Positions 1,782 through 28,743 of a stretch of DNA of 64,000 bases are shown here, in pieces. The position numbers and the translations under genes were made by a program. The DNA lies in contig DBHK01000027.1 of the NCBI GenBank assembly GCA_002295635.1, positions 5,920 to 69,919 on the forward strand, read 5' to 3'. The DNA is from Alphaproteobacteria bacterium UBA830 (lineage in GTDB: Bacteria > Pseudomonadota > Alphaproteobacteria > MPNO01 > UBA830). Each line of letters opens with the position of its first letter. Position 1 is the stretch's first letter. The notes beneath the pieces are model-generated. The model saw nothing but the letters and a program-made list of their open reading frames with translations. It had not been told where the DNA came from and ran no database searches.

Positions 1782-3260
1782 CTACCGATACTTTTCCGGC
1801 AGGTGCTTTGCATACTTGGCACGGATACGATCGTCGAGTTCTTGCGAAGATCGCGCAACAGCCGGGAAATCATCGCGTTTTCGGAAAGGGATGCAAGCAT
1901 CAACGACGACACGTGAATTACGGCGGTCGTGATCATCGTCGTAGCACATCGGATCCAGGTGGGTGCTCCAGCAACCGTTTATAATATCTATTCCTTCTCG
2001 CGGGTCATGGCGTGTGCACATTGCCCAGACCACGTCATTCATATTCGCTGGATCTATATCGTCATCCACCACCACTACCCAGCGGTTTGCGTAGGCGCCA
2101 GCGTGGCATTGCGATGCGACTAGTCCTACCTGTTTCGAATGGCCACCATACATCTGTTTGATCGAAACTGTTAGCCACATACGGCTACCGCCTGCTTCAT
2201 GCGCGTAGACACCCTGGACGCCGGGAATACCGGCGGCTTCCAGCTGGTTCCAGACGGCGGCAGCACGGTATGCTCCCATATAGTAAGTGTTGTCATTAGG
2301 TGGAACTGCCGGAATCGCGCCGGTAATAACCGGATTGTCCCGGTGCATAAGTGTTTCGATTCGGATCGCTGGTTCTGGTCGCTGACCGCCAGCATAATAT
2401 CCAGTCCATTCGCCAAGCGGGCCTTCAAGAATCTCGTCATCGACGTCGATGAAGCCCTCGAACGCGATCTCGGCACTGGCGGGAACCGGAAGCCCTGTAG
2501 TTGGCATGTTTATAACTTCTACGCTCTCTCCGAAGATGCCGCCCACTACATCCAATTCGTTAGTTTCATAGGGTACTTCAAACCCCCCGATCATAAACAT
2601 CACTGGGTGGACACCCGCCACCACAGCGACCGGACATTTCTCGCCTCTATCATGATATTTTTTCATGAGGAGACGGGCATGTTTACCGGGAGACATCATC
2701 ACGGTAGCGACGCGAGGTTCATGCGCCTGAACTCGATAAGTACCGTAATTTACCCATCCAGTATCTGGGTCTCGCATAGCCACTATGCAGCCAGTACCAA
2801 TGAAGTTTCCGCCATCGTGTTCATGCCATTTGGGCGACGGTAGGCTCTGGATATTAACAGCTTCTCCTTCTGTGACGTTCTCGACGAGCGGTCCTCCGTT
2901 AACTTCTACCGGCCGATGAGCTGGCGCCTCACCTAGGTAGTGGCGCCACCACCTGATCAAGTCTTCTTCGGTTGCTTCAGGAGGAAGGCCCAGCGCTATC
3001 GCACAACGCGGGCGAGACATGATGATATTGGCAAGGACACGGTGGCCATTGGGGAAGCCGGGAACGTCGTCGAATAACAGCGCCGGATTATCAAGGTCGC
3101 GCATAAAAATATCAACGAGGCCGCCAATATCCTCTTCGGTTTCGGCACCACTTATTCTCTCTAACTCGCCAATTTTATCGATTTCATCGAGAAAATTACG
3201 AAGATCTTTATTTGCCACGTCTAGTCTCCCTACGCTTAGCGCTGTCATCTTACCAGACAA
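1782..3260 (-). CDS. UbiD-family (prFMN-dependent) aromatic acid decarboxylase
   Basis: 492 aa. The N-terminus has the NKDLRNFLDEIDKIGEL motif typical of UbiD/VdcC-like decarboxylases, and length and overall layout fit the family. Confidence 0.85.
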   Translation of the reverse strand: MSGKMTALSVGRLDVANKDLRNFLDEIDKIGELERISGAETEEDIGGLVDIFMRDLDNPALLFDDVPGFPNGHRVLANIIMSRPRCAIALGLPPEATEEDLIRWWRHYLGEAPAHRPVEVNGGPLVENVTEGEAVNIQSLPSPKWHEHDGGNFIGTGCIVAMRDPDTGWVNYGTYRVQAHEPRVATVMMSPGKHARLLMKKYHDRGEKCPVAVVAGVHPVMFMIGGFEVPYETNELDVVGGIFGESVEVINMPTTGLPVPASAEIAFEGFIDVDDEILEGPLGEWTGYYAGGQRPEPAIRIETLMHRDNPVITGAIPAVPPNDNTYYMGAYRAAAVWNQLEAAGIPGVQGVYAHEAGGSRMWLTVSIKQMYGGHSKQVGLVASQCHAGAYANRWVVVVDDDIDPANMNDVVWAMCTRHDPREGIDIINGCWSTHLDPMCYDDDHDRRNSRVVVDACIPFRKRDDFPAVARSSQELDDRIRAKYAKHLPEKYR

Positions 3261-3295
3261 TTGAATCTTCAGAGCCTGCGGTCAAGGCGTGTTAA

Positions 3296-4144
3296 TCAGG
3301 TATGCCAATCGGTTATGGTAAGACGACGCAAAAGCCTCTCCTCTCCCTCTGGAAAATCTGTGCGAGCATGGTTCAGGCATCGATTATCCCAGATTAAGAG
3401 ATCTCGGGCTTTCCATTTGTGGGAGTATACAAAATCAGGATTTTCAGCGTGATCGAACAAAATGTTAAGTAGATCATCGCTCTCATCTCGCTTCATACCG
3501 ATGACGTGGCGCGTCATTAAACGGCTCAGATATAATGATTTACGGTTGGTCACCGGGTGCAACTTAACAAGGCCGTGGGTCGCAGCAGATGTGTCTGGTT
3601 CAGTTTCCTCGGTGGTTTCCTCGCGAAAGGTGTCGTCGTAGCCGTAGAGGTTTCTGACCTGTAATTGGTCAATACGGCTTTTTAGATCTTCATCTAACGC
3701 GTCGTAAGCCATGGCTAGGTTGGCAAACAATGTATCCCCGCCGCGGGATGGCAATTTTATTGCGTAAAGTGTGGTCGCGGCATAGGGCGTATCCCTGTGT
3801 GCGCCATCGGAATGAAATTGCATTTCGCCGTCCGGCAAAGACCCGATAGGCTCACCGTTTTTCCGGATATTACTGACCAGCATTACACCACGATTTCTGA
3901 CTTCTCCCCCCCCATAACCGGATCGAACTCGATATCCTGAATCTACCGGCCCGAAAAGGTCACCAAACCTGATCTGATCGGACGCCGTCAGCTTTTGACC
4001 TCGAATGCATAGAATTGAGTTCTTGTAGAAAGTTTCTCTAATCAATCCCGCAGTGTCATCATCCACTGGTCTTGTTAGATCCACGCCTTCTACCACCGAA
4101 CCGACTATGTTACTCAGAGGTTTAATATTTATCGTTGAAGACAT
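3296..4144 (-). CDS. TauD/TfdA-family Fe(II)/2-oxoglutarate-dependent dioxygenase
   Basis: 282 aa. Putative HxD...H iron-binding residues (HSDGAH...) and overall similarity to taurine dioxygenase-like proteins. Confidence 0.8.
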   Translation of the reverse strand: MSSTINIKPLSNIVGSVVEGVDLTRPVDDDTAGLIRETFYKNSILCIRGQKLTASDQIRFGDLFGPVDSGYRVRSGYGGGEVRNRGVMLVSNIRKNGEPIGSLPDGEMQFHSDGAHRDTPYAATTLYAIKLPSRGGDTLFANLAMAYDALDEDLKSRIDQLQVRNLYGYDDTFREETTEETEPDTSAATHGLVKLHPVTNRKSLYLSRLMTRHVIGMKRDESDDLLNILFDHAENPDFVYSHKWKARDLLIWDNRCLNHARTDFPEGEERLLRRLTITDWHT

Positions 4145-4228
4145 TGTAGAAAACTATGTACCGGCAAGATGATCCCTGTCAAAAGGGAATTTGAAGACAA
4201 ACCGAATACACACAAAGGGATCAAGCCT

Positions 4229-5122
4229 ATGACGAGTTTCAGGTTGCTGAATTATGCGGGTATTGAGGGTGAGCCTCGCCCCGGGATTGTAGTCGGCGAT
4301 TCAGTCATCGATCTTAGTTCCGCAGGTATGAGTGGATCCACATATGAAATGCTTCAGAATTGGGATGCCAATCACGAGAAATTGGTGAAAATCGCTGGTG
4401 ATGCCGAGTTGCACGAGCAGTATCCTCTATCGGATACTGACCTTCTTGCCCCCATTCTATATCCGCCGATCGTATACAATGCCGCTGCCAATTACATTGA
4501 TCACCAAAAGGAAATGTCAGGCGGGAAGCAGCTCGTAAAGGAAGATACCCATCCCTATTTTTTTCTTAAAGCCGGGCCGCATTGCATTATAGGCCCAGGA
4601 GCCGATATCCGATTGCCGGCTGTATCAGATTTTATTGATTGGGAGGCGGAACTAGCGGTCGTGATTGGAAAGCCCGCCCGGAATATTAAGGCGAAAAATG
4701 CCTCACAATACATTGCCGGTTATACCATCTTCAACGACCTGTCGGCGCGTGACATGAAACCCGTTGGGCGGACATTCAACGTGCACTGGTTTGCCCACAA
4801 GAATTTTGATGGTTCTGGTCCGATGGGTCCATGGATGGTGCCCGCCTCGGATATTCCCGATCCACATAATTTAGATATCAAGCTTTGGTTGAACGATGAA
4901 CTGAAGCAGGACTCAAACTCAAAATACTTGTTCTTCAATATCTTCGAGCAGATCGAATACATTTCTGCTCGTATGACTATGCGCCCTGGCGATATAATTG
5001 CCACTGGAACGCCATCCGGTGTAGGGGCCCCCTATGGGGGGCGTTTGAAACCAGGCGATACGGTGACGATAGAAATTGGCGGAATCGGAAAGTTGGTCAA
5101 TCCGGTAGTGCAGGGGGACTGA
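4229..5122 (+). CDS. Fumarylacetoacetate hydrolase (FAH) family protein (hydratase/decarboxylase type)
   Basis: The C-terminal FAH-domain region is recognisable (GTPSGVGAPYGGRLKPGDTVTIEIGGIG). Start chosen at MTSFRLLNY (AAGGGA SD upstream) rather than the upstream ATG at 4169. Confidence 0.75.
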   Translation: MTSFRLLNYAGIEGEPRPGIVVGDSVIDLSSAGMSGSTYEMLQNWDANHEKLVKIAGDAELHEQYPLSDTDLLAPILYPPIVYNAAANYIDHQKEMSGGKQLVKEDTHPYFFLKAGPHCIIGPGADIRLPAVSDFIDWEAELAVVIGKPARNIKAKNASQYIAGYTIFNDLSARDMKPVGRTFNVHWFAHKNFDGSGPMGPWMVPASDIPDPHNLDIKLWLNDELKQDSNSKYLFFNIFEQIEYISARMTMRPGDIIATGTPSGVGAPYGGRLKPGDTVTIEIGGIGKLVNPVVQGD

Positions 5123-5131
5123 ACCTCACTT

Positions 5132-5503
5132 CTAAATAATCGTAGCGGATTGATCCGAATAGTTTATCCTGACATTAAAGCTTCCTTCGTTCATAGACCA
5201 ATTCCAAATGTCGAATTCGCGTAGGCCGGCGGCATGGAGGGGATCCTTCATCGCGATTTCATGCGCGTGTTCGAACGAGTCCGCACGAACTATGATCATG
5301 CCGGTACGCACCTTATCTTCATCCTGCGTTTCCATTGGCCCAGCGGCAAACAGGATTCCTTGTCGTTCTAGTTCCACCTGACGTTCTAGATGTTGTGGCA
5401 AAAGCTCCATTATTTTGTCTTTTGGCGCGGTCGGCCGAGTGAAGATGACATATAAACCTTTCAGCGGTATATCCTTGGTTTTTGGTGTTTTTGTGATCGC
5501 CAT
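5132..5503 (-). CDS. YciI-like / Dabb-type small protein
   Basis: 123 aa. YciI-like ferredoxin-like fold signature (LLPQHLERQVELERQGILFAAGP). Confidence 0.6.
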   Translation of the reverse strand: MAITKTPKTKDIPLKGLYVIFTRPTAPKDKIMELLPQHLERQVELERQGILFAAGPMETQDEDKVRTGMIIVRADSFEHAHEIAMKDPLHAAGLREFDIWNWSMNEGSFNVRINYSDQSATII

Positions 5504-5685
5504 TTAGGACCTTTCTTTTTGTTGGTGGCCTAGACTATTAATGCCATTCAAGGGAATGCATCTGGTGAAGCTGGGTGCCTTAGTCGAACTTGGACCGGTG
5601 ACGTAAACACCGGTACCGACTTCCAAAGCAATTGTTACTGTGCAGCAGATGGCGCGGGTGCGAGGATTGACCTAAGCCTGTGGTA

Positions 5686-6729
5686 TTATCTATCCAATGT
5701 GTTTGGTGAGAATACTTCGCTGAGATCAAGTTTCCGCGGAGTTAGACCCTGTTCATAAGAATAAAGTGTAATGGCTTCGAGTTCTTCGCGGTTGGCAATA
5801 ACACCCTGCCGGACCAACGGGGTACGCAAGGCGGCCTCCGCCTCCCGAGGCAAGAGCCCAGTTTCAAGGTGGTCCATAACCATGGACATGCGCTGATTCT
5901 CCACATATTCAGTTGCTTCCTCGAACGCCTTGAATATGTTTAGGATTACCCAAGGATGTTCCTCCGCAAATTTTCGCTTAATCACCATTCCGTGATTTAT
6001 GGGATAAAGGTTATTTTTAGCGTAGTAGCGTTTTCCTTCGGCATAAGGGTCAGGGAAGAGTGGTGCGAAATCCGGGTGATTGTGGAGATCGGCGGTACTC
6101 CGGTCGACAAGGTTTCCACCTGGTAGATAGAGCAGTGTCGCATCTAGTTCTTTGGCAAGAAGCATCTCGCCCATGTTAGTCTCAGCGGGTATGCGGTGCA
6201 CCTTGACGCCATCGGGCGGCTCGAAACCTGTAGAACCTCCGTGACTTATATCTGGTGTACGTTCCATCCAGAATTCCATGTCCTTCGGAGCAACCCCAAA
6301 TTCATGTTCGAGAATACCGCGAGACCAAAGCGCTGCAGTCTGCTGGTACTCCGGTACGCCAACTCTTTTGCCGGCGAGATCTTCAGGTCTTTGGATCCCG
6401 GAATCCTTCCGGATCAAAATCCAATTCTGGAAAAAATAATGCGTCGAGAAGATCGGCAGGCCAATGAAACGGTCGTCGCCGCTCGCAATTGCCATCAGAA
6501 GCGACGACATCGACATTTCCGATATGTCGAATTCAGAGAACTTAAGCTGCCGCCAAAAAAGTTCAGACGGGTGAAGTTCCACGGGTGCTAGATCGATCCC
6601 CTCGGCATTAAACATTCCGTCGAGTATCGGCCGTGTTCGGAGATTTGGTGTTAGGGCAATACTTAATGACAACCCTTGTCCACTACCACCGCGAGTTCGC
6701 GCCTTAATTGTCTCGGGTCCCATTGATGA
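5686..6729 (-). CDS. NMT1/THI5-like (SsuA/DszB-type periplasmic-binding-fold) cytoplasmic protein
   Basis: Start trimmed to MSSMGPETIK. The longer ORF start at 6870 would overlap the upstream aldolase gene. No signal peptide, so an enzyme role (desulfinase/THI5-like) is more likely than a transport binding protein. Confidence 0.6.
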   Translation of the reverse strand, partial: SSMGPETIKARTRGGSGQGLSLSIALTPNLRTRPILDGMFNAEGIDLAPVELHPSELFWRQLKFSEFDISEMSMSSLLMAIASGDDRFIGLPIFSTHYFFQNWILIRKDSGIQRPEDLAGKRVGVPEYQQTAALWSRGILEHEFGVAPKDMEFWMERTPDISHGGSTGFEPPDGVKVHRIPAETNMGEMLLAKELDATLLYLPGGNLVDRSTADLHNHPDFAPLFPDPYAEGKRYYAKNNLYPINHGMVIKRKFAEEHPWVILNIFKAFEEATEYVENQRMSMVMDHLETGLLPREAEAALRTPLVRQGVIANREELEAITLYSYEQGLTPRKLDLSEVFSPNTLDR

Positions 6730-6748
6730 CATCTTCTTGCTCTCCAAA

Positions 6749-7462
6749 TTACGAATTCTTAGTAGCGCGACGGCACCAGACTTCCCAAGCCCGATCAAGA
6801 CTAATCGGCGCCTGCTGCATACTCGTACACTCCTCGATTTCGATATCCGTAAGGAAGTCAGGCTCGCCAATCATCATGGTTTGAAGTTGTAGTTTAGCGT
6901 TTACCTGCAGATAAATTGCCTTCATCACTGTCTCTTCTACAGTGGCTCCCGTCACGACACAGCCGTGGCGTTTCATCAATGCGATCATACCGCTTCCTAG
7001 TGAAGCCGCCAGGTCTCGGCCCTGTTCCATGGTTACGACAAGATGGTTGGTTTCACCGAATTTATCGCGCATATCCCATACCGGGATGTTCTTTCCGATG
7101 GGGGCGCAAGTGTGTGTGACCGGGCGGAGCGGCGTGCCAGTTGAGGCAAAGGGGATCACTTCGTACGAATGATTATGAATTACCACGTTTACATCTGGCC
7201 GCTGCTCATAAATTGCCCCATGGATCATTCGCTCGCTATAAGGCCGTCGGTCGCCGGCATCGATGGCTTCGCCGTCTAGCCGATAAGTGACTATATCGTC
7301 TGTCTCTATTAGTTCCGGCGCCCGGGCACGCGACAGGAGATATTTCTCCCGATCGCCGGGGTGTCGAAAGCTAATGTGGCCGTATGCGTCAACTACTTCT
7401 TCGTGCGCAAGTATGTGATTGGCGACGACGATATTGTTTAACGTTCCGGCGTCTACATTCAT
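6749..7462 (-). CDS. Class II aldolase/adducin-family protein
   Basis: Start at MNVDAGTLNN. HNHS motif and overall fuculose-phosphate-aldolase-like layout. Confidence 0.8.
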   Translation of the reverse strand: MNVDAGTLNNIVVANHILAHEEVVDAYGHISFRHPGDREKYLLSRARAPELIETDDIVTYRLDGEAIDAGDRRPYSERMIHGAIYEQRPDVNVVIHNHSYEVIPFASTGTPLRPVTHTCAPIGKNIPVWDMRDKFGETNHLVVTMEQGRDLAASLGSGMIALMKRHGCVVTGATVEETVMKAIYLQVNAKLQLQTMMIGEPDFLTDIEIEECTSMQQAPISLDRAWEVWCRRATKNS

Positions 7463-7542
7463 GCGTTGTCCTTTGTTCACACTTGGGCCTTTATGGCCAA
7501 GAAGAGAAATTACAGCGATCGAAATCCCGGTATGGCCCAATA

Positions 7543-9386: not shown

Positions 9387-10382
9387 CTATAGCCCGAATA
9401 ACGCACTTGGGTTTTTCTCGACGATAATTTCTATATCTCTATTACTGAAGCCTGCATCGCGCAGGGTCTTCATCGGATGTGGGTCGCCGGGTGGGAAGGG
9501 GAGGTCGCTACCGAGGAGGATGCGGTCTAAACCCACTAAATCACCTAGATAGTTAAGCGCTCGTCCATCATGCAAGATGGTGTCGTAGTGGAAATGCTTC
9601 AGGTATTGAGAAGGTGGTTTAATCGCTACATTGCCGGTGATCCGTCCGTCTGACGCATGATGCATGCGATCAAAACGGCCGATAAGAAATGGTATTGAGC
9701 CGCCCCCATGTGACAGGATAATTTCTAGTTCTGGAAAACGATCTAATACGCCTGCGGCTATCATTGAGCCAACGGTAAGTGTCGTATCATTGGTGTATGC
9801 GACAATTTGATTAAGGGCAAATTTCCCTGCTCGCGCAGGTGCGATTGGCTGGGCAGGGTGGATAAAAACCGGAGCCTTAAGCTCGACGCAAGTAGCCCAA
9901 TATTCATCAAGTTCGCACTCGCCTAAGTTTTTTCCATCAACATGGGCTGCGATAATCGCACCGACCGCGCCGGCTTTAATACCGCGTTCTAACTCGCGTG
10001 AGGCTGCGGCTGCATCCTGTAGCGCGCCGGAAGCCAGCCAAGAGAAATGGTCTGGATAAGTATTGCAAAGCCGTGTCATGCTATCATTTAACGCGGCGTG
10101 CCAGAGTATGCCCTTTTCGGCAGGTAAATCGTATCCAAAGATGTCTGTCCAGATACTGAGTATCTCACGATCTACGCCCTGTAGGTCCATTTCTTCGAGC
10201 CGGTGATCTGCGTTCGTCAGAGTATCGAAGAAAGGACGGACCTGCATACCACTTTCGAAACGACAACAATGGCACCCGGGTTCTGTCTCAAGCAGATCAA
10301 TACCGAAGTCTTTTCCTCGGGCGGAGAGCGTCTCTATCACGTCCGGGGGGACTAAGTGCGCGTGTACGTCAATTACGTTCAT
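9387..10382 (-). CDS. Amidohydrolase_2 (ACMSD/LigW-like metal-dependent hydrolase/decarboxylase)
   Basis: Start at MNVIDVHAHLVPP (HxH metal motif), 20 bp after the stop of the molybdenum hydroxylase large subunit. Confidence 0.8.
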   Translation of the reverse strand: MNVIDVHAHLVPPDVIETLSARGKDFGIDLLETEPGCHCCRFESGMQVRPFFDTLTNADHRLEEMDLQGVDREILSIWTDIFGYDLPAEKGILWHAALNDSMTRLCNTYPDHFSWLASGALQDAAAASRELERGIKAGAVGAIIAAHVDGKNLGECELDEYWATCVELKAPVFIHPAQPIAPARAGKFALNQIVAYTNDTTLTVGSMIAAGVLDRFPELEIILSHGGGSIPFLIGRFDRMHHASDGRITGNVAIKPPSQYLKHFHYDTILHDGRALNYLGDLVGLDRILLGSDLPFPPGDPHPMKTLRDAGFSNRDIEIIVEKNPSALFGL

Positions 10383-10401
10383 GATCGGACGTCTCCTAGT
10401 T

Positions 10402-12690
10402 TCAATTTCCGTTATCCCGCAATGCATTGCGGAGTCGATCAGGTGTAATAGGCAACTCTTTTATGGAGATACCGTGCGGACGAAGCGCCCGGGAAACCGC
10501 ATTGCTAACGGCGGCGGCAACGGCGACGATCCCGCCTTCACCTGCTCCCTTGAACCCCATCGGATTGAACTCTGATGGTGAATCCTCTAGCGCGATAGCT
10601 GTGATCTCCGGTAATTCAGACGTGGTTGGCAATAGGTAGTCTGCAAAGCTACCGGTCAGAAGCTGACCGTCAGTGTCATAGATAAAATGATCGAGGAACG
10701 TACCACCCAAGCCCTGGACTACGCCGCCAACCGCCTGACCCTGCACCAAAGCGGGATTGAGTGCCCGTCCAATCTCTTCAGTTAGCCAGTACCGTTCGAC
10801 CTCAACGACACCGGTTTCAATATCTACCGCGACCTGTGCCGCATGGGCGCCGTATGAATATGAGATACGTTTTTCATTATCAAAAATAGCATCGGCGGCC
10901 AGGGTTTCGCCCCGGTGTTCCGAGAAAGACGCTAGTTCCTGCAAGCTCAGTCTTTCGTTATATCTATACACTGCACCATCGCTATAACGCAGGTTTTCCG
11001 GGTCGCAGTTCCAGCGCAGCGCTGCAATGCCTACAGCATGGTCTTTCAGTAAATCGGCAGCGATACGCGTTGCATTGCCGGCCATTACAGTATTACGGCT
11101 GTGGAAAGTGCCACCGCCTGTTTTCACCAGCGTCGTGCTGCCGTGGAGAACCTGAACACGGGCGATATCAATATCTAGGTAATCAGCGCAAATCTGTGCA
11201 AGCCCTGTCTCGGTTCCCTGACCAACTGATGAAGCACCGGTACGAATGGTCACTGTGCCGTCTGACGTTGCGGTTATGTTTGCTGACTCCGGTGGTCCGG
11301 CGGCACTACTTTCGATAAAACATGCAATACCGAGGGCGCGAGCCCGACCATCCGAGTCTGGGACGTTGGTGGGCCAGTCCGTGTATCGGCATTCCTTCAA
11401 AAGCCGGTCTAGAGCAGCAGGATAATCGCCCTTATCCAACGTTGCCTCAGTGTCTCCCGGAACGAGCTCACCTATTTTGTATGGCAGATCCGCCGGGGTC
11501 ATCAGATTGCGTCGGCGCAGTTCTGCTGGATCGAGGTCTAGATCATCCGCCATCAGGTCTAAGAGACGTTCGCGGCAGAAATTAGCTTCAAAGCGACCCG
11601 GACCGCGGAATGTGCCCACTGGGGTTTTGTTGGTGATCAAAAACTGCACATCGCAGCTAAAAGAAGGTACCCGATATGGGCCTGGAAGAAACTGTGCGGC
11701 CTTCGACGGTACTACACCGCCATTGGTTCGAACATAGGCTCCCATGTCGCCCCGAACTGTTCCCCGCATACCGAGGATTTCGCCTGTCGCCGTCGCGGCT
11801 ATTTCAAGATCGCAGATGATATCGCGCGAATGGTTGGTTGCGGTCAGGTTTTCTCGCCGATCCTCGATCCATTTTACTGGACGTTCTGTACGCCTACTTG
11901 CAAGAGGAACCAGATAGTCCTCCGGATACAGTTCGCCGCGAGCACCGAAGCCGCCGCCTACATCCGTCTCGATTAGCTCGACGGAACTTTCAGGCATGTC
12001 AAACGCTTCTGCCAGATGCCGGCGATTGAAGAAATTAACCTTTGTGGCACCATGCAATCGTAATAAGGGTTTAGAGATATCGAATTCCGCGATCAGGCCG
12101 CGTGTCTCCATCGGTACGGCGCCGTGACGGTTGGTGATGAAGCGTTCATGCCGGGTATAGGCAGCCCCGTCGAACGCCTCTTTGGTGTTGCCGCGGCTAA
12201 CGGTGTAACGGGTTCCCATATTTTCGCCCGCTGCTTCGTGGATCAATATTTGTCCATCGAAAGCTTGATCAACGGTGGTCACAGCTGACAGCGGGTCAAA
12301 CTCGATCTCGATCAGTTCTAGAGCATCTTCTGCAACATAGCGGTCCTCAGCAATTACGACGGCAATTGGCTCACCTACATATCGCACTTTGTTGACCGCA
12401 ATCGGACATTGCAGAAATCTCTCGAAGCCGTCAAATGGAGCTAGCCTAAGAGGAATAGTCGGCAAATCATTCTCCATATCCGCAGCGCAGAATACGTCGA
12501 TTACCCCTTCAAGCGCACGCGCCGTATCGAGATTGATAGTCTTTATAAGAGCGTGAGCATGGGGACTGCGTAACACTGCCATAATTGCCATACCAGGCAG
12601 TTTGACGTCGTCAATATAGATACCCTCTCCAGTTAGTAAGCGTTGATCTTCCAGCCGCGAAACGGACTTTCCTATATATCTCCGGCTCAA
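10402..12690 (-). CDS. Xanthine dehydrogenase-family molybdopterin-binding large subunit (CoxL/CutL homologue, not a bona fide CO dehydrogenase)
   Basis: 762 aa. N-terminal a/b hammerhead and molybdopterin-binding domains. The active-site loop reads GTFRGPGRFEANF rather than the CoxL form I/II signatures. Confidence 0.85.
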   Translation of the reverse strand: MSRRYIGKSVSRLEDQRLLTGEGIYIDDVKLPGMAIMAVLRSPHAHALIKTINLDTARALEGVIDVFCAADMENDLPTIPLRLAPFDGFERFLQCPIAVNKVRYVGEPIAVVIAEDRYVAEDALELIEIEFDPLSAVTTVDQAFDGQILIHEAAGENMGTRYTVSRGNTKEAFDGAAYTRHERFITNRHGAVPMETRGLIAEFDISKPLLRLHGATKVNFFNRRHLAEAFDMPESSVELIETDVGGGFGARGELYPEDYLVPLASRRTERPVKWIEDRRENLTATNHSRDIICDLEIAATATGEILGMRGTVRGDMGAYVRTNGGVVPSKAAQFLPGPYRVPSFSCDVQFLITNKTPVGTFRGPGRFEANFCRERLLDLMADDLDLDPAELRRRNLMTPADLPYKIGELVPGDTEATLDKGDYPAALDRLLKECRYTDWPTNVPDSDGRARALGIACFIESSAAGPPESANITATSDGTVTIRTGASSVGQGTETGLAQICADYLDIDIARVQVLHGSTTLVKTGGGTFHSRNTVMAGNATRIAADLLKDHAVGIAALRWNCDPENLRYSDGAVYRYNERLSLQELASFSEHRGETLAADAIFDNEKRISYSYGAHAAQVAVDIETGVVEVERYWLTEEIGRALNPALVQGQAVGGVVQGLGGTFLDHFIYDTDGQLLTGSFADYLLPTTSELPEITAIALEDSPSEFNPMGFKGAGEGGIVAVAAAVSNAVSRALRPHGISIKELPITPDRLRNALRDNGN

Positions 12691-13175
12691 ATTGATACCC
12701 CGCCGCTGCGGCGTGCCGCCGCGTCCATAATTGCGTCAACAATTGATACGTACCCCGTACATCGGCAAATATTCCCAGAAATCGCACTTTCGACTTCGGC
12801 ACGGGTTGGTGTCGGGTTCTCGCCTAGGAAAGCTTCCGCAGTCGTTAACATCCCTGGAGTGCAGAAACCGCACTGCAGCGCATGGTTGTCGCGAAACGCC
12901 TCTTGAAGTGGAGACAGGTTCTCACCTTCGGCGAGACCTTCTACTGTTGTGATATCCATTTTGTGGGCTTGGACCGCAAAAATCAGACAAGACCGTATTG
13001 CCGCTCCATCAGCTATTACGGTGCAGGCGCCACACACGCCGTGTTCGCATCCCAGGTGTGTGCCCGTAAGATCTAGTTGTTCGCGCAGGCAATCGGCCAG
13101 TGACATGCGGGCGTCGACATCGCAGCTATACGAGGTGCCGTTTACTTTTAGAGATATGGCATGGCGGTTTGTCAC
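12687..13175 (-). CDS. (2Fe-2S)-binding small subunit of the molybdenum hydroxylase
   Basis: 162 aa. CEHGVCGACTV and CGFCTPGM cluster motifs. 4-bp overlap with the large subunit. Confidence 0.9.
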   Translation of the reverse strand: MTNRHAISLKVNGTSYSCDVDARMSLADCLREQLDLTGTHLGCEHGVCGACTVIADGAAIRSCLIFAVQAHKMDITTVEGLAEGENLSPLQEAFRDNHALQCGFCTPGMLTTAEAFLGENPTPTRAEVESAISGNICRCTGYVSIVDAIMDAAARRSGGVSI

Positions 13176-14041
13176 AGATTACGTTTCCAGGCTTCAGAGA
13201 GAGTTCGCTTTAGGAGGACTGCGGAAACTTCGCGCCGATATGCGATAGAGGCATGGATATCGTCGAATGGATCAATATCGGCATCAATGGTATCTGCGGA
13301 TTCTTTGAATAGGCCGAGGGAGGGTTCAGATCCCATTAGGGTGTTTTCCGCTCTGTGAAGACGAAGCGGTGTATCACCTGCCCCTATTGCTACGCATGCG
13401 CAGTTGGATATGGCGCCGCCGTCATTGATGTCAAACCAAGCTGCGACGCCCACTAGGGCAAAGTCGCCTTCCCGGCGGGAGATTTCTTTGAATCCCCAGT
13501 GACGTTGTGTCGGCCAGGGTGGAAAACAGATTTTTTCGATCAACTCACTACTGTCAGCGGCTGTCGTAAAAACGCCTTGAAAAAAGTCGACTGCAGGAAC
13601 AACCCGAGGGCCGGCCGGTCCGCGTAGGTGAATTTTTGCTTCACAAACTAAAGTAATTCCCGGCAATTCGGCTGCTGGATCCGCGTGAGCGACACTGCCA
13701 CCCAATGTGCCTCGGTTTCGGATTTGGAAATGAGCAATATGGGCTGCGGCTGCGGCCAGCAAGGGATTGTTCTTTTCGATGTCAGGATCTGTTTCAAGCC
13801 GGCGGGTACGTACCATGGGGCCGATTTCTAGGCCGCCATCTGGGCTTATCCGGATATCTGCGAGCTCGGAAACACCGTTAAGGTCAATAAGCGCGGACGG
13901 TGAAGCGACACGAAAGTTCATCATCGGTACGAGGCTTTGTCCGCCCGCAAGATATCGGGCGTCCTCACCATTCTCCCGCATCATAGCGATTGCGCCATCG
14001 ACACTATCTGCAGCAAAGTAGTTGAACTTAGATGGTTTCAT
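13172..14041 (-). CDS. FAD-binding medium subunit of the molybdenum hydroxylase (CoxM-like)
   Basis: 289 aa. FAD-binding region (YLAGGQSLVPMMNFRVASP). 4-bp overlap with the small subunit. Confidence 0.85.
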   Translation of the reverse strand: MKPSKFNYFAADSVDGAIAMMRENGEDARYLAGGQSLVPMMNFRVASPSALIDLNGVSELADIRISPDGGLEIGPMVRTRRLETDPDIEKNNPLLAAAAAHIAHFQIRNRGTLGGSVAHADPAAELPGITLVCEAKIHLRGPAGPRVVPAVDFFQGVFTTAADSSELIEKICFPPWPTQRHWGFKEISRREGDFALVGVAAWFDINDGGAISNCACVAIGAGDTPLRLHRAENTLMGSEPSLGLFKESADTIDADIDPFDDIHASIAYRREVSAVLLKRTLSEAWKRNL

Positions 14042-14268
14042 TACCGGTCACCGGCCATCAGGTGTACGCCCAGTGTAGCTAAAAGAGATGTAAAAGTCCT
14101 CTGGTCACCTCTGATCGGCGAGGCAAGGTTTCCTCGCTTGATTGCTGCGCCGGCCCAATAGCGGTTTCTATCTTTTCTAGCCCCAAAATGGTCGGGCTCA
14201 CTATTCGTGGCCATTTATCTGTTCGCCGAGAAAAATTTTGGAAGCAGACTTTGTTTTGATGTGGGCAC

Positions 14269-15468
14269 TCACCTCTTCTCTCCAGTGGTGGTTATGAGGG
14301 CGCGCTCGATTTGAGCAGCCTGCTTCAAAAGAATCTCATCTCCGTCAGGTGAGCCCATTAATTGAACCCCCGTTGGGATCGTAAAGTGCGACAAGGGATT
14401 TGGTATGCTGACAACTGGATTTCCGGTAATATTTGCAAGGCATGTCAGGATAGTCATCGCAACAACGACTGGTACTTCTTGACCACCGAGCAGGGCTCTA
14501 CGAGCCTCACGATGTGGTGGAGCGATCGGCAGGGTGGGCGACAACAATAGGTCGATTGTCTCTAGGGTTTTTTGTAAGTGGTCGGAGGCAGCGCGGGCCC
14601 ATTCCCAAGCTGCATCGACGCTTTCTACCGACAGATTCTCAGCATGACGAAGGCCCGCAATAGCAGCCGTACCGAGACGGTTACGCTCGGCTTCCGTCAA
14701 TTCCATATATATTTTCCCCGCTTCTGATAGAACGATAACGGCATGCGCCTCTGCGATCTGTTGCCTGGCAGGTATGGTTACTCTCGTAATGTTGTGTCCC
14801 GAGATCTTTAACTGGTGAGCTATCTCATCAAGTTCGGTTGCGATTGATTCAGTGAACAGACCGGCTCGGTCTTCTTCGATAGCGATGCAAAGCCCCTCTG
14901 TGATCTCGGCCGATTCTTCAATTCCGTCGATAAGAACGATGCTGGCCCGGGTCAAAATTTCCAAATTTCGCGCAATCAGACCTACATGGTCGAACTGGGG
15001 TGTCAACGGCCATACACCGTCGTTGGAAACACGCCCGTATGTCGGTTTGAATGAAGTAAGACCAGTACAGGCAGCAGGTATGCGCACGCTACCGCCGGTA
15101 TCCGTACCCACGGCAAAGTCGCAAAACCCTGCTGCCACGGCGGCCGCCGATCCACCAGAGGATCCGCCGATAATAAGATCGGGGGCGATTGGGTTGGAAG
15201 TCTGCTGCGTTGATGCGCCGAAGCCCCCCGCGTCAGTTTGTGTCATGCCGACAAAGTCAGCGCCGGCTGCAAAAAGAGATGCCACGCTTGGTGCCGTTGC
15301 CGAGGCTCGTCTGTCCGCTAGTAATGGGTGGCCGGCGGTGAATGCTCGACCATCAATCGCTACGTTATCCTTTACCGCAAAAGTCAGTCCATCAAGCTCG
15401 CCCGCAGCAGTGGGCTCAATACGCGTCTTTTCAACGAACGCGTTCCAACGGTCTTCCTTTGGAGGCAT
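14269..15468 (-). CDS. Amidase (amidase-signature family)
   Basis: Amidase-signature glycine/serine-rich stretch GGSSGGSAAAVAAG, with a candidate catalytic Lys in FAVKDN. Confidence 0.85.
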   Translation of the reverse strand: MPPKEDRWNAFVEKTRIEPTAAGELDGLTFAVKDNVAIDGRAFTAGHPLLADRRASATAPSVASLFAAGADFVGMTQTDAGGFGASTQQTSNPIAPDLIIGGSSGGSAAAVAAGFCDFAVGTDTGGSVRIPAACTGLTSFKPTYGRVSNDGVWPLTPQFDHVGLIARNLEILTRASIVLIDGIEESAEITEGLCIAIEEDRAGLFTESIATELDEIAHQLKISGHNITRVTIPARQQIAEAHAVIVLSEAGKIYMELTEAERNRLGTAAIAGLRHAENLSVESVDAAWEWARAASDHLQKTLETIDLLLSPTLPIAPPHREARRALLGGQEVPVVVAMTILTCLANITGNPVVSIPNPLSHFTIPTGVQLMGSPDGDEILLKQAAQIERALITTTGEKR

Positions 15469-15490
15469 GATGAGGAACGTACCGACCCCG

Positions 15491-16300
15491 CTATTGGTCT
15501 CGCAGCCTATCCATCAAAGACTTTTCTTGACCACCATCGATCTCGATCTGAGTACCATTGACGAAATGCATCAGCGGCGATGCAAGCATTACGCATAAAT
15601 TAGAAACCTCTTCTGTCTCGGCGATACGTCCCAAAGGAATGGAGGACGGTGCGAGCTTGTCAGCTTCCTCAAATGATAGGTCCATGTCCCGCGCCATCGC
15701 GTTCACGAGGCCGGTCCAACGTTCGGTACGGACAGGCCCCGGATTAACAGCGACAAAGCTGATATTGTTTTTGCCGTATTGTCCCGAAAGCGACATAGTC
15801 AGATTTTGCCCGGCGGCATTGGCGGCACCCGGCGCTATTTCCCAATAAGATGGTTTTACACCGTCATTACCTATCAAGTTTACGACGCGCCCCCCCCCCT
15901 GTTCAACCATGATTGGTAAAACGTAGCGCAAGCAACGGACGTACCCCATGAACTTAAGTTGTAGGGACTGTTCCCAATCATCTTCAGAGAGATGCTCTAT
16001 TACTCCACCCGGCGATGAGCCGGCATTGTTGACCATAATATCGACCCGACCGAGCTGTTTCGCACTTTCTTCGATAAATTTTTTAGCCTGGTCATTATTA
16101 GTTAGATCAGTCGGAATTGCGACGACCTTAACGCTGGTTGCGTCGCGAATTTCTTGTGCTGTCGTTTCCAAAGGCTCAGGGCGCCGAGCGCAGATCGCTA
16201 TGTCGACGCCCTCTTTTGCAAGGCCCCAGGCTATACCTTTGCCGATGCCTTCGCTTCCGCCGGTGATGAGCGCGGTTTTTCCACTCAGTTGTAAATCCAT
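15491..16300 (-). CDS. SDR-family oxidoreductase
   Basis: TGGSEGIGKG Rossmann motif and YxxxK region. Confidence 0.85.
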   Translation of the reverse strand: MDLQLSGKTALITGGSEGIGKGIAWGLAKEGVDIAICARRPEPLETTAQEIRDATSVKVVAIPTDLTNNDQAKKFIEESAKQLGRVDIMVNNAGSSPGGVIEHLSEDDWEQSLQLKFMGYVRCLRYVLPIMVEQGGGRVVNLIGNDGVKPSYWEIAPGAANAAGQNLTMSLSGQYGKNNISFVAVNPGPVRTERWTGLVNAMARDMDLSFEEADKLAPSSIPLGRIAETEEVSNLCVMLASPLMHFVNGTQIEIDGGQEKSLMDRLRDQ

Positions 16301-16329
16301 TTTGTCTCTTCCATTTCTGTTTTTCTAAT

Positions 16330-17187
16330 TCAATGTCTAGGGCTTTTGTGGTTCATCCAATTTCCGTCGGTTGTCGCAGAAAAATATTCTCGAAGCGCCG
16401 TGTTAACGATGTCCGGTTCCTCCATTATGATGGTATGTCCGGTCCGCGGCACAGTCTGAAGGGCCGCAGAGGGGACTGTCCGTTTGAGAAAAAGGCTGCC
16501 ATCCAAACAAGGCTGATCCTCGTCCCCGACAATTACTAGCAGGGGCAGGCTAAAGCTACGGAGGTCTGCCTCCATATCCCACAAGGTGGGGCGGTCTCGC
16601 TGAAGTTTCCGCATTGTGTGAGCGGCACCTTTTGGTGATAGCCCAGCGAGGATTTTTTCAAACGCGGTAAATCCCTCAGGGTCTTTTACTTCGAAAGTGT
16701 GACGCATGGGAAATCGAGCGTATTTGGCTGCGGACTCCGAGATCGGTAATTCTATAAACATTTTCGCAATGTCTTCGCACAACTGACGCGAGGTCTGACG
16801 CTCGTCGGGATGCGACCCCCAGCCACAACCAAGAGCGGAGACTGAAAGGCAACGGTCAGGATACCTGATACCCACATGGAGCGCAGTATATGCACCCATT
16901 GAATGGCCGACGATGTGTGCCTTCTCGATATCAAGCGTATTCATAACTGCGATTGCATCGTCGAGAGCAACATACTGACCATAGCTCTCTTCGCTTTCAG
17001 GTACATCGGACGGGGGGTAGCCGCGCGCGGCGTATGTAATACATCGGTAGACATCGCTCAGTGCAGCGACCTGCTTCGACCAAGTTCGATGATTGCCCGC
17101 GAATTCGTGCATGAAAAGGACGGCGTCGCCCGACCCGACATCCTCATAATACAGTGATGTTCCGTCGATGCTTTCAAGCCTAGGCAA
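16330..17187 (-). CDS. Alpha/beta-fold hydrolase
   Basis: GHSMG nucleophile elbow. 285 aa. Confidence 0.8.
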   Translation of the reverse strand: MPRLESIDGTSLYYEDVGSGDAVLFMHEFAGNHRTWSKQVAALSDVYRCITYAARGYPPSDVPESEESYGQYVALDDAIAVMNTLDIEKAHIVGHSMGAYTALHVGIRYPDRCLSVSALGCGWGSHPDERQTSRQLCEDIAKMFIELPISESAAKYARFPMRHTFEVKDPEGFTAFEKILAGLSPKGAAHTMRKLQRDRPTLWDMEADLRSFSLPLLVIVGDEDQPCLDGSLFLKRTVPSAALQTVPRTGHTIIMEEPDIVNTALREYFSATTDGNWMNHKSPRH

Positions 17188-22698: not shown

Positions 22699-24009
22699 AT
22701 GGAAATGCAGACCGCCACCAAGGTTGGTTACCAGTCTGGTTTCGGAAATGAATTTGCGACCGAAGCACTACCCGGTGCATTACCGGAGGGTCGGAATTCT
22801 CCACAGAAAACGCCGTACGGCCTTTATACGGAACTGATCAGCGGTACAGCCTTTACACAGCCTCGTAACGATAATCTACGGACTTGGCTCTACCGGATAC
22901 GGCCATCGTCTCAGCACGGAAAATTCAAGAAGATTGATAAAAAATTATGGCGCACCCCTACCTTTGATGAAGGAGTGTTGACGCCACAGCAAATACGTTG
23001 GGATCCAATACCTATCCCGGCGGAAGCAACAGATTTGATCGCCGGCATAAAGACCTTGGCGGGTAATGGAGATTCTAAAATCCAATCGGGGATCGGTATC
23101 CACGTTTATTGCGCAAACGTCTCGATGAGTGATCGCTATTTCTACAATGCCGATGGGGAGATGCTGTTCGTTCCCCAGCAGGGCTGCTTGCGACTCGTAA
23201 CAGAAATGGGTGTAGTTGAGGTGGTGCCAGGCCAGATTGCAGTGGTGCCCCGAGGGATAAGATTCTGCGTCGGCCTACCAAATGGGCCATCGCGCGGTTA
23301 TGTATGCGAAAACTTTGGAGCGCCCCTACGACTACCCGATCTCGGACCTATCGGATCTAATGGTCTTGCCAATCCCCGGGATTTTCTTGCACCGGTAGCG
23401 TCGTTTGAAGATCTTGATGGTGATTTTGAACTTGTCGTAAAATTTGGGGGAGATCTCTGGGCTTCTGATATCGACCATTCGCCTTTAGATGTCGTTGCAT
23501 GGCACGGAAATTTGACACCATATAAGTATGATCTCGATAATTTCATGTCTATCGGGTCTATATCCTTCGATCACCCAGACCCGTCTATCTTCACTGTGCT
23601 TACGTCTCCATCTGGCCCGGCAGGGCTGGCCAATGTAGACTTCGTCATTTTTCCGCCACGGTGGCTGGTTGCGGAAAATACCTTCCGGCCACCCTGGTAT
23701 CACCGCAACTTTATGTCGGAATTCATGGGATTGGTGCACGGTCATTACGACGCCAAAGAGGAGGGCTTTGTGCCTGGGGGGGCCAGCTTACACAATATGC
23801 ATTCCGCTCACGGACCTGATCGAGAGACCTATGAAAAGGCGACAAAGTCTGATTTGAAACCGATGCATTTAGCAGACACGATGGCTTTTATGTTTGAGAC
23901 CCGCTATCCGATCAAGTTGACGGAATGGGGTGCGAATGTCCCCCAGATCCAACCGGATTATCAAGATTGCTGGCAAGGACTAAGTAAAAACTTCGACGGG
24001 AAAAGATAA
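22699..24009 (+). CDS. hmgA: Homogentisate 1,2-dioxygenase
   Basis: 436 aa. The N-terminal [19 protein letters not shown] motif is diagnostic of homogentisate 1,2-dioxygenase. Confidence 0.9.
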
Positions 24010-24011
24010 TA

Positions 24012-25334: not shown

Positions 25335-25530
25335 ATTTTTTATTGTACACTCGGATGAGTTGTCCCACGCTGGAACAATCTTCCTCGGTTTTTAACCCGG
25401 CGGCGTGCATAATTTGAGCAGTCATATCTTCGTCGACATTCTGTCGGCTCCCGGTGACACCCACCGCGACAATCACCCCATCTCTTTGGTTTCGTATGCT
25501 CCGCACTTCACCTTCCGAAGACACCTGGTG

Positions 25531-25806
25531 TTAGGAAACGTCGTCGATGACTTTCGTGAACACCGGGCGCTCGTTGTCTTGAGCCGAAGATCGACTGGAC
25601 GAATGGCCTACCGGTAGCGCAGCGTATGTTTTCCCTAACGGGATCTTGAAGCGTAGCGCCGCGGCGCGGTTTTCCTTGCCGAAAACCTTGACGATATTTC
25701 TCGGCCCGACGACGGAGAAACTTATGGGGTACGATTTTATTTTCTGACTCCTCTCGAATTTGGCGGTTTGGGTGATATTCGCATGTTCAAACAAGATGAT
25801 GTTCAT
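25531..25806 (-). CDS. Hypothetical small protein (weak)
   Basis: 91-aa ORF in the 536-bp gap after fahA. No recognisable family, so it may be non-coding. Confidence 0.2.
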   Translation of the reverse strand: MNIILFEHANITQTAKFERSQKIKSYPISFSVVGPRNIVKVFGKENRAAALRFKIPLGKTYAALPVGHSSSRSSAQDNERPVFTKVIDDVS

Positions 25807-28695: not shown

Positions 28696-28743
28696 ATTGA
28701 CGGAGATTAATTCCCAGGCTGGTAAGCTGGCTCAATCTCCTTC

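Follow-up and report, generated by a model that had tools for sequence, protein, structure and literature searches.

We analysed a stretch of 64,000 nucleotides (nt) from Alphaproteobacteria bacterium UBA830 (contig DBHK01000027.1 of assembly GCA_002295635.1), referred to here as the window, in which seven co-directional genes on the minus strand, among them those for a three-subunit molybdenum (Mo) hydroxylase, occupy positions 9387 to 17187. In transcription order these genes encode: an alpha/beta hydrolase (17187–16330; 285 amino acids (aa), with a TTG start behind AGGAG; Pfam Abhydrolase_1, 1.9e-21), a short-chain dehydrogenase/reductase (SDR; 16300–15491; 269 aa; Pfam adh_short, 5e-49), an amidase-signature amidase (15468–14269; 399 aa; Pfam Amidase PF01425, 8e-66), a CoxM-type FAD-binding medium subunit (14041–13172; 289 aa; Pfam FAD_binding_5 and CO_deh_flav_C), a CoxS-type 2Fe-2S small subunit (13175–12687; 162 aa; Pfam Fer2_2 and Fer2), a CoxL-like Mo large subunit of the Kdh/Qor branch (12690–10402; 762 aa; Pfam Ald_Xan_dh_C PF01315, MoCoBD_1 PF02738 and MoCoBD_2 PF20256) and a metalloenzyme of the Pfam family Amidohydro_2 (10382–9387; 331 aa) which resembles aminocarboxymuconate-semialdehyde decarboxylase (ACMSD). 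An initial annotation of this locus had described seven tightly spaced, co-directional genes with the hydroxylase subunits in CoxMSL order and 4-bp overlaps, and our coordinates, Pfam domains and overlaps all agree with it.

The spacers between the genes, again in transcription order, are 29, 22, 227, −4, −4 and 19 nt, the two negative values being the 4-bp overlaps of the FAD gene with the 2Fe-2S gene and of the 2Fe-2S gene with the Mo gene. The Amidohydro_2 gene had been placed right after the large-subunit gene, and this holds: its real start is the ATG at 10382, which lies behind AGGAG and 19 nt beyond the large-subunit stop, while a longer mechanical open reading frame (ORF) from 10427 would overlap the large-subunit gene. 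The 227-nt spacer between the amidase and FAD genes (14268–14042) divides the cluster into two sub-operons, alpha/beta hydrolase-SDR-amidase and FAD-FeS-Mo-Amidohydro_2. We found no match to a molybdenum cofactor riboswitch or any other riboswitch in this spacer or upstream with Rfam, the sole Rfam match being a tRNA-Sec, and promoter-like and terminator matches in the region were no commoner than in shuffled sequence. In two relatives (loci L002 and L003) a gene for a MarR-family regulator sits where the spacer is. Not one of the seven proteins reached the cut-off of an NCBIfam equivalog, and the Amidohydro_2 protein had no NCBIfam match whatever.

The same gene order was found in at least 20 independent loci from marine genomes and metagenomes, with parts of it in more than 60 further loci, an arrangement which is far beyond chance. 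At least 50 marine loci carry the recurring cluster and its core was found in hundreds of soil metagenome stretches; the cluster is conserved both vertically and horizontally. This synteny search upholds the earlier view that the locus is a real conserved catabolic cluster which includes a complete CoxMSL-type Mo hydroxylase. Relatives of the large subunit at 60–84% identity were confined to uncultured marine Alphaproteobacteria (31 species-level GTDB genomes plus metagenome contigs), and their loci are of two types. Type 1 loci (at least 71% identity) are organised as alpha/beta hydrolase-SDR-amidase-(MarR)-FAD-FeS-Mo-Amidohydro_2, and in most of them the alpha/beta hydrolase gene is directly upstream of the SDR gene. 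Type 2 loci (60–67%) retain only a divergent SDR gene beside Mo-Amidohydro_2, with an ABC transporter, alpha/beta hydrolases, a Rieske oxygenase, a thiamine pyrophosphate enzyme and a MetE-like protein as neighbours, or, in the other subtype (2b), an enoyl-CoA hydratase, a second Amidohydro_2 protein, UbiD and an amidase. The SDR, Mo subunit and Amidohydro_2 genes occurred together in approximately 31 of the 37 marine loci, the remaining six being short or truncated contigs, and in every locus containing an Amidohydro_2 gene it directly follows either the large-subunit gene or the SDR gene.

Searched with the SDR as anchor, metagenomes gave more than 547 stretches with 78–93% identity, many of them from soil. 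Of the 14 soil loci with at least 6 kb on each side, 11 contained an alpha/beta hydrolase and 10 a Mo large subunit, with layouts of either Mo(-)|SDR-Amidohydro_2 or Amidohydro_2/cyclase-family hydrolase/ABC-alpha/beta hydrolase-SDR-ABC-MarR-Mo(-); it should be noted that these ORF-based synteny maps include some spurious antisense ORFs in high-GC soil contigs. The SDR gene adjoins the Amidohydro_2 gene in seven soil contigs, and the two genes (64% and 71% identity, respectively) are nine bases apart in a 9-Mb genome. A Ca. Binatia metagenome-assembled genome contains a contiguous alpha/beta hydrolase (69%), SDR (87%) and Amidohydro_2 (72%), the last right after the SDR, with no Mo enzyme and no amidase. 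The cluster had originally been described as built around the Mo enzyme, a description which the Binatia locus contradicts. The most constant unit is instead the SDR plus the Amidohydro_2 protein, usually with the alpha/beta hydrolase. Mo hydroxylases (from at least two subfamilies), amidases and coenzyme A (CoA) ligases are exchangeable additions, the amidase being accessory; Mo hydroxylases accompany the SDR/Amidohydro_2 unit in marine Alphaproteobacteria and in most soil loci.

Plasmid and chromid searches returned only partial sets from cultured organisms, none of which had the full seven genes. Cultured Paraburkholderia sp. 22B1P encodes, on p22B1P1 at ~1.895–1.920 Mb, an alpha/beta hydrolase (60%), an enoyl-CoA hydratase, an AMP-forming ligase, the SDR (75%), an amidase (38%) and a TetR protein, and this set lies behind a Bmp/PnrA-type ABC transporter and a divergent VanA-like oxygenase. 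Haladaptatus has the SDR alone, which is uninformative. The sole cultured Mo-Amidohydro_2 pair that we found is on a plasmid of Neorhizobium sp. EC2-8 (L038, 8300–13000), where the FAD and Mo genes are apparently frameshifted; these may be pseudogenes or the result of long-read sequencing errors. Immediately before this set is a gene for GTP cyclohydrolase I.

All three subunits of the Mo enzyme have the domains and motifs of the three-subunit, CoxMSL-type xanthine-oxidase family. The FAD subunit contains AGGQS and TLGGS, glycine motifs of a type described for Kdh and Qor (PMC8305194), the small subunit contains two [2Fe-2S] cysteine motifs (C-x4-C-x2-C-x11-C and C-x2-C...C-x-C) and the large subunit retains the catalytic Glu (KGAGEGG). 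Among solved structures the large subunit scored highest against KdhL (7dqx, 511 bits), followed by archaeal glyceraldehyde oxidoreductase (4zoh, 397 bits), Qor (392 bits), CoxL (372/300 bits), 4-hydroxybenzoyl-CoA reductase (274 bits) and xanthine dehydrogenase (~154 bits), with the nicotinate dehydrogenase of Eubacterium barkeri being distant (125 and 118 bits); identity was ~37–40% to KdhL, and in the tree described below 37.5% to KdhL and 36% to NdhL. The active-site loop reads PVGTFRGPG, as opposed to AYRAPG in Kdh, AYRGVG in Qor and AYRCSFR in form I carbon monoxide (CO) dehydrogenase. This last loop, with its Cu-binding Cys, was not found in the large subunit (GTFRGPGR, no Cys), and the form I CoxL model TIGR02416 gave 397 bits against a cut-off of 991. 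By motif, GGGFG, PVGTFRGPG and KGAGEGG are kept in 115–120 of the 120 best large-subunit homologues, and at the positions of E345 and W551, which contact the substrate in Kdh, the window protein has Gly and Phe.

The large subunit had been called a substrate hydroxylase for its lack of CO-dehydrogenase signatures, and the TFRGPG loop, the missing Cu-binding Cys and KdhL as nearest solved relative support the same assignment: on its sequence features this is a substrate hydroxylase and not a CO dehydrogenase. We propose that it catalyses the water-dependent hydroxylation of a carbon beside a ring nitrogen. In a rough neighbour-joining distance tree, without support values, the window's large subunit and its marine relatives formed a clade of their own, sister to a Variovorax plasmid protein (47%) and SDR-linked soil sequences. 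The nearest characterised enzyme is KdhL, but the clade itself is separate and its members are uncharacterised. A second, orphan Mo large-subunit gene lies at 25872–28211 on the plus strand (779 aa, 36% identity to the cluster copy) with no adjacent FAD or FeS gene. Because this orphan and the type 2 large subunits stand without adjoining partner genes, a single FAD/FeS pair may serve several large subunits.

The Amidohydro_2 protein had been assigned to the ACMSD/LigW type of decarboxylase, and comparison with solved structures agrees with this, with scores of 147 bits for ACMSD, 84 for LigW, 67 for gamma-resorcylate decarboxylase and 61 for uracil-5-carboxylate decarboxylase. By alignment to the ACMSD of P. 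fluorescens, the metal-binding and catalytic residues (HxH, His, His and Asp) and both ACMSD arginines (in RPFF and GRFD) are kept in nearly all of the 120 best homologues. Genuine ACMSDs, whose genes adjoin 3-hydroxyanthranilate dioxygenase, share merely 31–34% identity with the window protein, and because of this its sequence indicates an ACMSD-like enzyme and not ACMSD proper. Genes for 3-hydroxyanthranilate 3,4-dioxygenase, kynureninase and aminomuconate-semialdehyde dehydrogenase were not linked to it. Its nearest cultured homologue is the Neorhizobium copy (43%), which also lies beside a Mo enzyme. We propose that the protein is a non-oxidative decarboxylase or, alternatively, a ring-amide hydrolase.

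The SDR is the best-conserved gene of the cluster, at 85–93% identity where the other cluster proteins share 51–84%, and identity is still 78–83% when marine Alphaproteobacteria are compared with soil bacteria; at E ≤ 1e-60 it has more than 3,400 matching proteins in the database. It is not a generic dehydrogenase. Of the solved structures AerF matches it best (6jh7, 161 bits), ahead of sorbose reductase and BacG, and although the TGGSEGIG and NNAG Rossmann motifs are present, it has NLIGNDG...PGAAN in place of the canonical Ser...YxxxK (aligned residues are IIGTSG/SGVVN in AerF and YNVTK in sorbose reductase). This replacement of the triad was invariant in 120 of the 120 best homologues, as well as in the soil, Binatia and Paraburkholderia copies. 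We also considered the SDR as an alcohol dehydrogenase which supplies an aldehyde to the Mo enzyme, a role ruled out by the missing Tyr-Lys pair. BacG reduces conjugated C=C bonds. AerF has been described as an alkenal double-bond reductase (PMC13256417). The window protein is AerF/BacG-like and we propose, from this resemblance, that it is an NAD(P)H-dependent reductase of conjugated (ring) C=C bonds.

Both remaining enzymes are hydrolases with intact catalytic motifs. The alpha/beta hydrolase contains a GHSMGA nucleophile elbow; its best NCBIfam model is 3-oxoadipate enol-lactonase PcaD, but enol-lactonase, esterase and C-C hydrolase models all score far below their cut-offs, and its best solved homologue is the esterase 5egn. 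A lactam/lactone or ester hydrolase is proposed on this basis. The amidase has an intact Ser-cisSer-Lys signature (K33 in KDN, GGSSGGS...GTDTGGS) and matches PRK08310 best (236 bits against a cut-off of 391), followed by the AtzE and allophanate hydrolase models. Its identity ranges from 51–77% in the marine type 1 loci to 41–47% in some soil loci and 38% in Paraburkholderia, and we propose that it hydrolyses a carboxamide or an open-chain amide with the release of ammonia.

What the analysis shows directly is which genes are present, that their catalytic motifs are intact, to which families they belong and that their linkage is conserved; from this we infer a substrate class, an order of reactions and the exact reactions. 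Our leading interpretation, which we put at somewhat under an even chance, is that this conserved seven-gene catabolic cluster acts on a nitrogen-containing aromatic ring which bears a carboxyl or carboxamide group and is degraded by an oxygenase-free sequence of hydroxylation, decarboxylation, reduction and hydrolysis. Where needed, the amidase would turn a carboxamide into the acid. The FAD/2Fe-2S/Mo hydroxylase would then add a water-derived hydroxyl group beside the ring nitrogen to give a pyridone-type lactam, the ACMSD-like enzyme would remove the now activated carboxyl group, the AerF-like SDR would reduce the conjugated C=C bond of the lactam with NAD(P)H, and the alpha/beta hydrolase and amidase would open the ring at C-N, releasing ammonia and leaving an aliphatic dicarboxylate or semialdehyde. 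An oxygenase-free route for an N-heteroaromatic compound fits because the cluster combines a hydroxylase, a decarboxylase-type metalloenzyme, a probable conjugate reductase and amide/ester hydrolases with no conserved oxygenase; the genes which accompany it in the related loci encode amide-bond hydrolases, MarR regulators and ABC transporters, and not oxygenases. An N-heterocycle, or an amide of one, had been favoured from the start and still appears the most likely kind of substrate, a pyridine mono- or dicarboxylate or a related diazine being the likeliest class.

A broader version of this idea is more tentative, and we would give it clearly less credence: that the cluster represents an undescribed, widespread and oxygenase-independent pathway for N-heteroaromatic rings in aerobic ocean and soil bacteria, with the SDR lacking Tyr-Lys as its signature dearomatising or ring-reducing enzyme, joined by the ACMSD-like enzyme, the alpha/beta hydrolase and a front end which can be exchanged (a Mo hydroxylase, an amidase or a CoA ligase). 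We found no paper describing the combined gene set, nor one describing a 6-hydroxyquinolinate decarboxylase. This and the comparison with known systems below are in line with the earlier statement that the gene set matches no described cluster exactly.

Several observations weigh against an interpretation of the seven genes as one N-heteroaromatic pathway. There are 227 nt between the two halves of the cluster, and the halves are found separately in cultured bacteria: Paraburkholderia has the alpha/beta hydrolase, SDR and amidase together with a CoA ligase and enoyl-CoA hydratase, Neorhizobium has the Mo enzyme and Amidohydro_2 protein (FAD-FeS-Mo (38%)-Amidohydro_2 (43%) in EC2-8) and Variovorax (SRS16) has the Mo enzyme alone. 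The marine type 2 large subunit has no adjacent FAD or FeS gene. The role of the SDR as an ene-reductase rests on ~40% similarity and one shared motif loss. None of the seven families has a characterised member at useful identity (a search for characterised proteins gave nothing above ~47% for any of the genes), and homology indicates no substrate. An Amidohydro_2 protein which lies beside a Mo dehydrogenase in the breakdown of lumazine is an amide-hydrolysing isomerase and not a decarboxylase (PMC12391406). Finally, an aldehyde substrate of the Mo enzyme is possible because archaeal glyceraldehyde dehydrogenase subunits top the NCBIfam matches of all three subunits (594, 241 and 205 bits, below the cut-offs).

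If the Mo enzyme does act on an aldehyde, it could oxidise a formyl group or a ring-cleavage semialdehyde to a carboxylate which the ACMSD-like enzyme would then remove, for example in a conversion of 5-formyluracil through uracil-5-carboxylate to uracil, with the SDR, hydrolase and amidase processing the product by uracil reduction and ureide hydrolysis. Besides the NCBIfam ranking and the 397 bits of 4zoh, this idea is favoured by uracil-5-carboxylate decarboxylase belonging to the same Amidohydro_2 subgroup (61 bits), by the next-best amidase models being those of ureide hydrolases (AtzE and allophanate hydrolase) and by URC-type uracil genes 20 kb off in the window. However, the NCBIfam scores are below cut-off and come from a library without a Kdh/Qor-type model, whereas in pairwise comparison KdhL outscores the aldehyde enzyme (511 vs 397 bits); ACMSD, at 147 bits, is much nearer than uracil-5-carboxylate decarboxylase; and an aldehyde-generating enzyme is not conserved in the cluster. 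We therefore regard an aldehyde-based pathway as unlikely. The example of lumazine leads to a different proposal, which we find rather unlikely as well, in which the Amidohydro_2 protein would hydrolyse or rearrange a lactam made by the Mo enzyme, like the 6,7-dihydroxylumazine isomerase of Cupriavidus sp. LA-1, and decarboxylation would be left to another enzyme such as the UbiD encoded at 1782–3260. In LA-1 a three-subunit Mo dehydrogenase comes first, then a Zn Amidohydro_2 enzyme attacking an amide bond and then a UbiD decarboxylase (PMC12391406), and the window has its UbiD gene 6 kb downstream; UbiD is also found near the SDR, Mo and Amidohydro_2 trio in type 2b loci, and the most distant Mo-Amidohydro_2 pair, that of Neorhizobium, adjoins GTP cyclohydrolase I and an Amidohydro_1 protein. 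The LA-1 isomerase, however, has two subunits, with ~27 kDa for each chain, binds Zn through His6, His8 and Asp235 and always occurs with a GTP-binding helper, whereas the window has one ACMSD-like chain of 331 aa. UbiX and a pterin deaminase also belong to the LA-1 cluster, and helper, UbiX and deaminase were not found within 10 kb here, while the SDR, alpha/beta hydrolase and amidase have no counterpart in the LA-1 cluster.

The gap of 227 nt, or the MarR gene in its place, could also mean that alpha/beta hydrolase-SDR-amidase and Mo hydroxylase-Amidohydro_2 are two unrelated modules which serve separate pathways and are merely syntenic, especially as each is found without the other in cultured bacteria and the layout differs among lineages. 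What makes this improbable is that the SDR stays with the Mo subunit and the Amidohydro_2 protein when the layout changes: the arrangement is a divergent SDR|Mo-Amidohydro_2 in all type 2 loci and Mo|SDR-Amidohydro_2 in soil, where 10 of the 14 well-flanked loci have the Mo subunit, and in Binatia the SDR gene has the Amidohydro_2 gene right behind it. The initial annotation had likened the gene set to pathways of the picolinate/nicotinate type. The aerobic route of this type has 2,5-dihydroxypyridine and maleamate as intermediates, and in it the alpha/beta hydrolase would deformylate N-formylmaleamate and the amidase would act on maleamate. The cluster does encode a Mo hydroxylase, an alpha/beta hydrolase, an amidase and, as in the case of PicC, an Amidohydro_2 decarboxylase, but neither a ring-cleaving dioxygenase, nor a 6-hydroxypicolinate or 6-hydroxynicotinate monooxygenase, nor a maleate isomerase was found in the cluster or conserved beside it in any of more than 100 related loci. 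Because these enzymes are absent, the alpha/beta hydrolase would have no N-formylmaleamate to deformylate; the SDR, the best-conserved gene, has no role in such a route, and the E. barkeri nicotinate dehydrogenase is distant (125 bits). We consider the maleamate route very improbable. A nitrogen-free substrate seems to us just as remote. In this case the core of decarboxylase, dearomatising SDR and C-C hydrolase would degrade a polyhydroxybenzoate by a reductive route of the resorcinol or phloroglucinol type, which would suit the Binatia locus, with its alpha/beta hydrolase, SDR and Amidohydro_2 alone, the presence of gamma-resorcylate and dihydroxybenzoate decarboxylases in the Amidohydro_2 subgroup, and the matches of the alpha/beta hydrolase to models of meta-cleavage C-C hydrolases; phloroglucinol reductase is also an SDR. 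On the other hand, amidases, cyclase-family amidohydrolases and further amidohydrolases repeatedly accompany the core, and no xanthine-oxidase-family hydroxylase is known to act on carbocyclic rings. Breakdown of homarine or trigonelline, to which the MetE-like and Rieske genes of the type 2 loci had drawn our attention, was rejected, as the published hom operon consists of different genes (a flavin-dependent oxygenase pair, a peptidase and an aldehyde dehydrogenase).

The cluster is flanked by genes for selenocysteine insertion and for selenoproteins. Upstream on the minus strand lie selA (20937–19456), selB (19459–17534) and a tRNA-Sec gene (17428–17333, Rfam 75.7 bits), with prfC (release factor 3) before the sel genes. 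Downstream, also on the minus strand, an AhpD-related CxxU selenoprotein gene (9315–8176; 379 aa; CTYU, TGA at 8580–8578; NCBIfam NF041238, 282 bits, above cut-off) starts 71 nt beyond the Amidohydro_2 gene, and is followed by one for a peroxiredoxin/thioredoxin-fold selenoprotein (8049–7585; 154 aa; GHWUPYC, TGA at 7917–7915). Automatic gene calls break both genes at the TGA; both had been recognised as selenoprotein genes directly downstream of the cluster, and both are real. The sel genes upstream and the AhpD-like selenoprotein gene downstream flank the cluster in about a dozen type 1 genome loci, with eight metagenome contigs for the sel order, and were not found in the type 1 relatives L002, L003 and L020, which are of similar divergence, in type 2 loci or in soil loci, save for one SelB match which was not examined. 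A protective role of the selenoproteins against reactive oxygen species from the Mo enzyme, as once suggested, has nothing in its support but synteny in one marine subclade, which is most simply read as inherited. The distance of 71 nt between the Amidohydro_2 and AhpD-like genes would allow a functional tie, but no finding speaks for one. Selenium-dependent Mo hydroxylases, which have a labile selenium cofactor, are recognised as a trait by co-occurrence with selD, yqeB and yqeC; none of these three genes was found within the 64-kb window, where selA, selB and the tRNA-Sec gene only, serving selenocysteine insertion, are present.

Genes for the catabolism of aromatic compounds are abundant in the surrounding 40 kb (1782–7540 and 22699–37858). 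The downstream part encodes a class II aldolase-family protein, an NMT1-like protein of 394 aa, a YCII protein, an FAA-family hydrolase, TauD and UbiD, and a trio of aldolase-II, NMT1-like and ApbA genes is kept downstream of the cluster in 9–12 type 1 loci; the nearest NCBIfam model of the class II aldolase-family orthologue is 3,4-dihydroxyphthalate decarboxylase (85 bits, below cut-off). In the upstream part there are genes for homogentisate dioxygenase and fumarylacetoacetase, an AMP ligase, an FAD_binding_2 oxidoreductase, PrpF, a VOC protein and an FAD_binding_3 hydroxylase. Further on is the URC-type uracil set on the minus strand, comprising uracil phosphoribosyltransferase (37911–38555), DUF1688 (38568–39800) and a GTP_CH_N/GTP cyclohydrolase II-like protein (39797–41041), which we take to be equivalent to yeast URC6/URC4/URC1, and after it two luciferase-like monooxygenases on the plus strand (41205–43600).

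Marine and soil genomes abound in Mo-hydroxylase genes annotated as 'CO dehydrogenase large subunit' or 'xanthine dehydrogenase family', most of them without an assigned substrate, and the cluster provides a testable context for one group of them. If our interpretation is true, it would add a bacterial route which recycles the nitrogen of pyridine- or diazine-type metabolites and would assign functions to several large uncharacterised protein subfamilies. In public records the SDR is named 'bacilysin biosynthesis oxidoreductase YwfH', the Amidohydro_2 protein 'hypothetical protein' or 'aminocarboxymuconate-semialdehyde decarboxylase' and relatives of the large subunit 'carbon-monoxide dehydrogenase large subunit'. 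The names YwfH, ACMSD and CO dehydrogenase get no support from gene context, and for annotation it should be noted that, despite them, the Amidohydro_2 gene does not encode ACMSD and the SDR is no enzyme of bacilysin biosynthesis.

We compared the cluster to systems which have previously been described. Kdh (KdhLMS of Paenarthrobacter nicotinovorans) and Qor share with it the three subunits carrying FAD, 2x[2Fe-2S] and molybdopterin, the glycine motifs of the FAD subunit, the x-[YF]-R-x-x-G loop and the catalytic Glu, but identity to Kdh is low, the contact residues have changed, there are no nicotine-pathway neighbours and the window protein is in a separate neighbour-joining clade. With the tetrahydro-6-oxonicotinate (THON) route of E. 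barkeri and Azorhizobium caulinodans, in which a later decarboxylation to a C5 diacid (glutarate) is said to have been reported by Kitts et al. in 1992, the likeness is one of reaction logic only. That route consists of Mo hydroxylation, reduction of 6-hydroxynicotinate to tetrahydro-6-oxonicotinate and hydrolytic C-N opening (PMC3511419; PMC9304392), for which E. barkeri uses the Fe-S flavoprotein reductase Hnr and an enamidase of the Amidohydro_1/3 type, with homologues in Azorhizobium and Bradyrhizobium (PMC3511419). The reductase of our cluster is instead an SDR and its hydrolases have other folds; proteins of the Hnr and enamidase folds were not found in the cluster. The hxn genes of Aspergillus nidulans encode a Mo hydroxylase, an alkene reductase, an SDR, a cyclic imidase and an ammonia-releasing amidase-signature amidase (PMC9304392), so that Mo hydroxylation, ring saturation, an SDR step, hydrolytic opening and the amidase are all held in common. 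However, the hxn pathway also needs two flavin monooxygenases, an Old Yellow Enzyme (OYE)-type reductase and an imidase of the polysaccharide-deacetylase type, none of which was found in the window cluster, and it has no Amidohydro_2 decarboxylase (PMC9304392). Because the cluster enzymes are non-homologous to Hnr, enamidase, OYE and imidase, the cluster would be an analogous route to THON and hxn and not the same one.

The pic and nic pathways of Alcaligenes faecalis and Pseudomonas putida are similar in starting with a Mo hydroxylase, in having an Amidohydro_2 decarboxylase (PicC, in pic) and in the late use of an alpha/beta hydrolase and an amidase. The defining genes of these pathways are those for a monooxygenase, 2,5-dihydroxypyridine 5,6-dioxygenase and maleate isomerase, and they have no AerF-like SDR. 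Cluster I for lumazine in Cupriavidus LA-1 has a three-subunit Mo dehydrogenase and an Amidohydro_2 enzyme acting on the hydroxylated product, and is widespread in soil bacteria (PMC12391406), but on its published description it is set apart by a two-subunit isomerase with a helper, by UbiD/UbiX decarboxylation and by having no SDR, alpha/beta hydrolase or amidase. The window SDR and AerF of aeruginosin biosynthesis both lack Ser and YxxxK at the canonical positions (SGVVN in AerF and PGAAN in the window SDR). AerF and BacG/YwfH of bacilysin biosynthesis serve secondary-metabolite biosynthesis beside prephenate decarboxylases, whereas the window SDR is in a catabolic setting and at most ~40% identical. 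ACMSD is the closest solved relative of the Amidohydro_2 protein, which has all of its metal-binding and catalytic residues and both arginines, and differs from it in the low identity to the dioxygenase-linked copies and in having no kynurenine-pathway neighbours. The catabolism of N-heterocycles initiated by a Mo hydroxylase is itself an established type, and the new part is the variant gene set.

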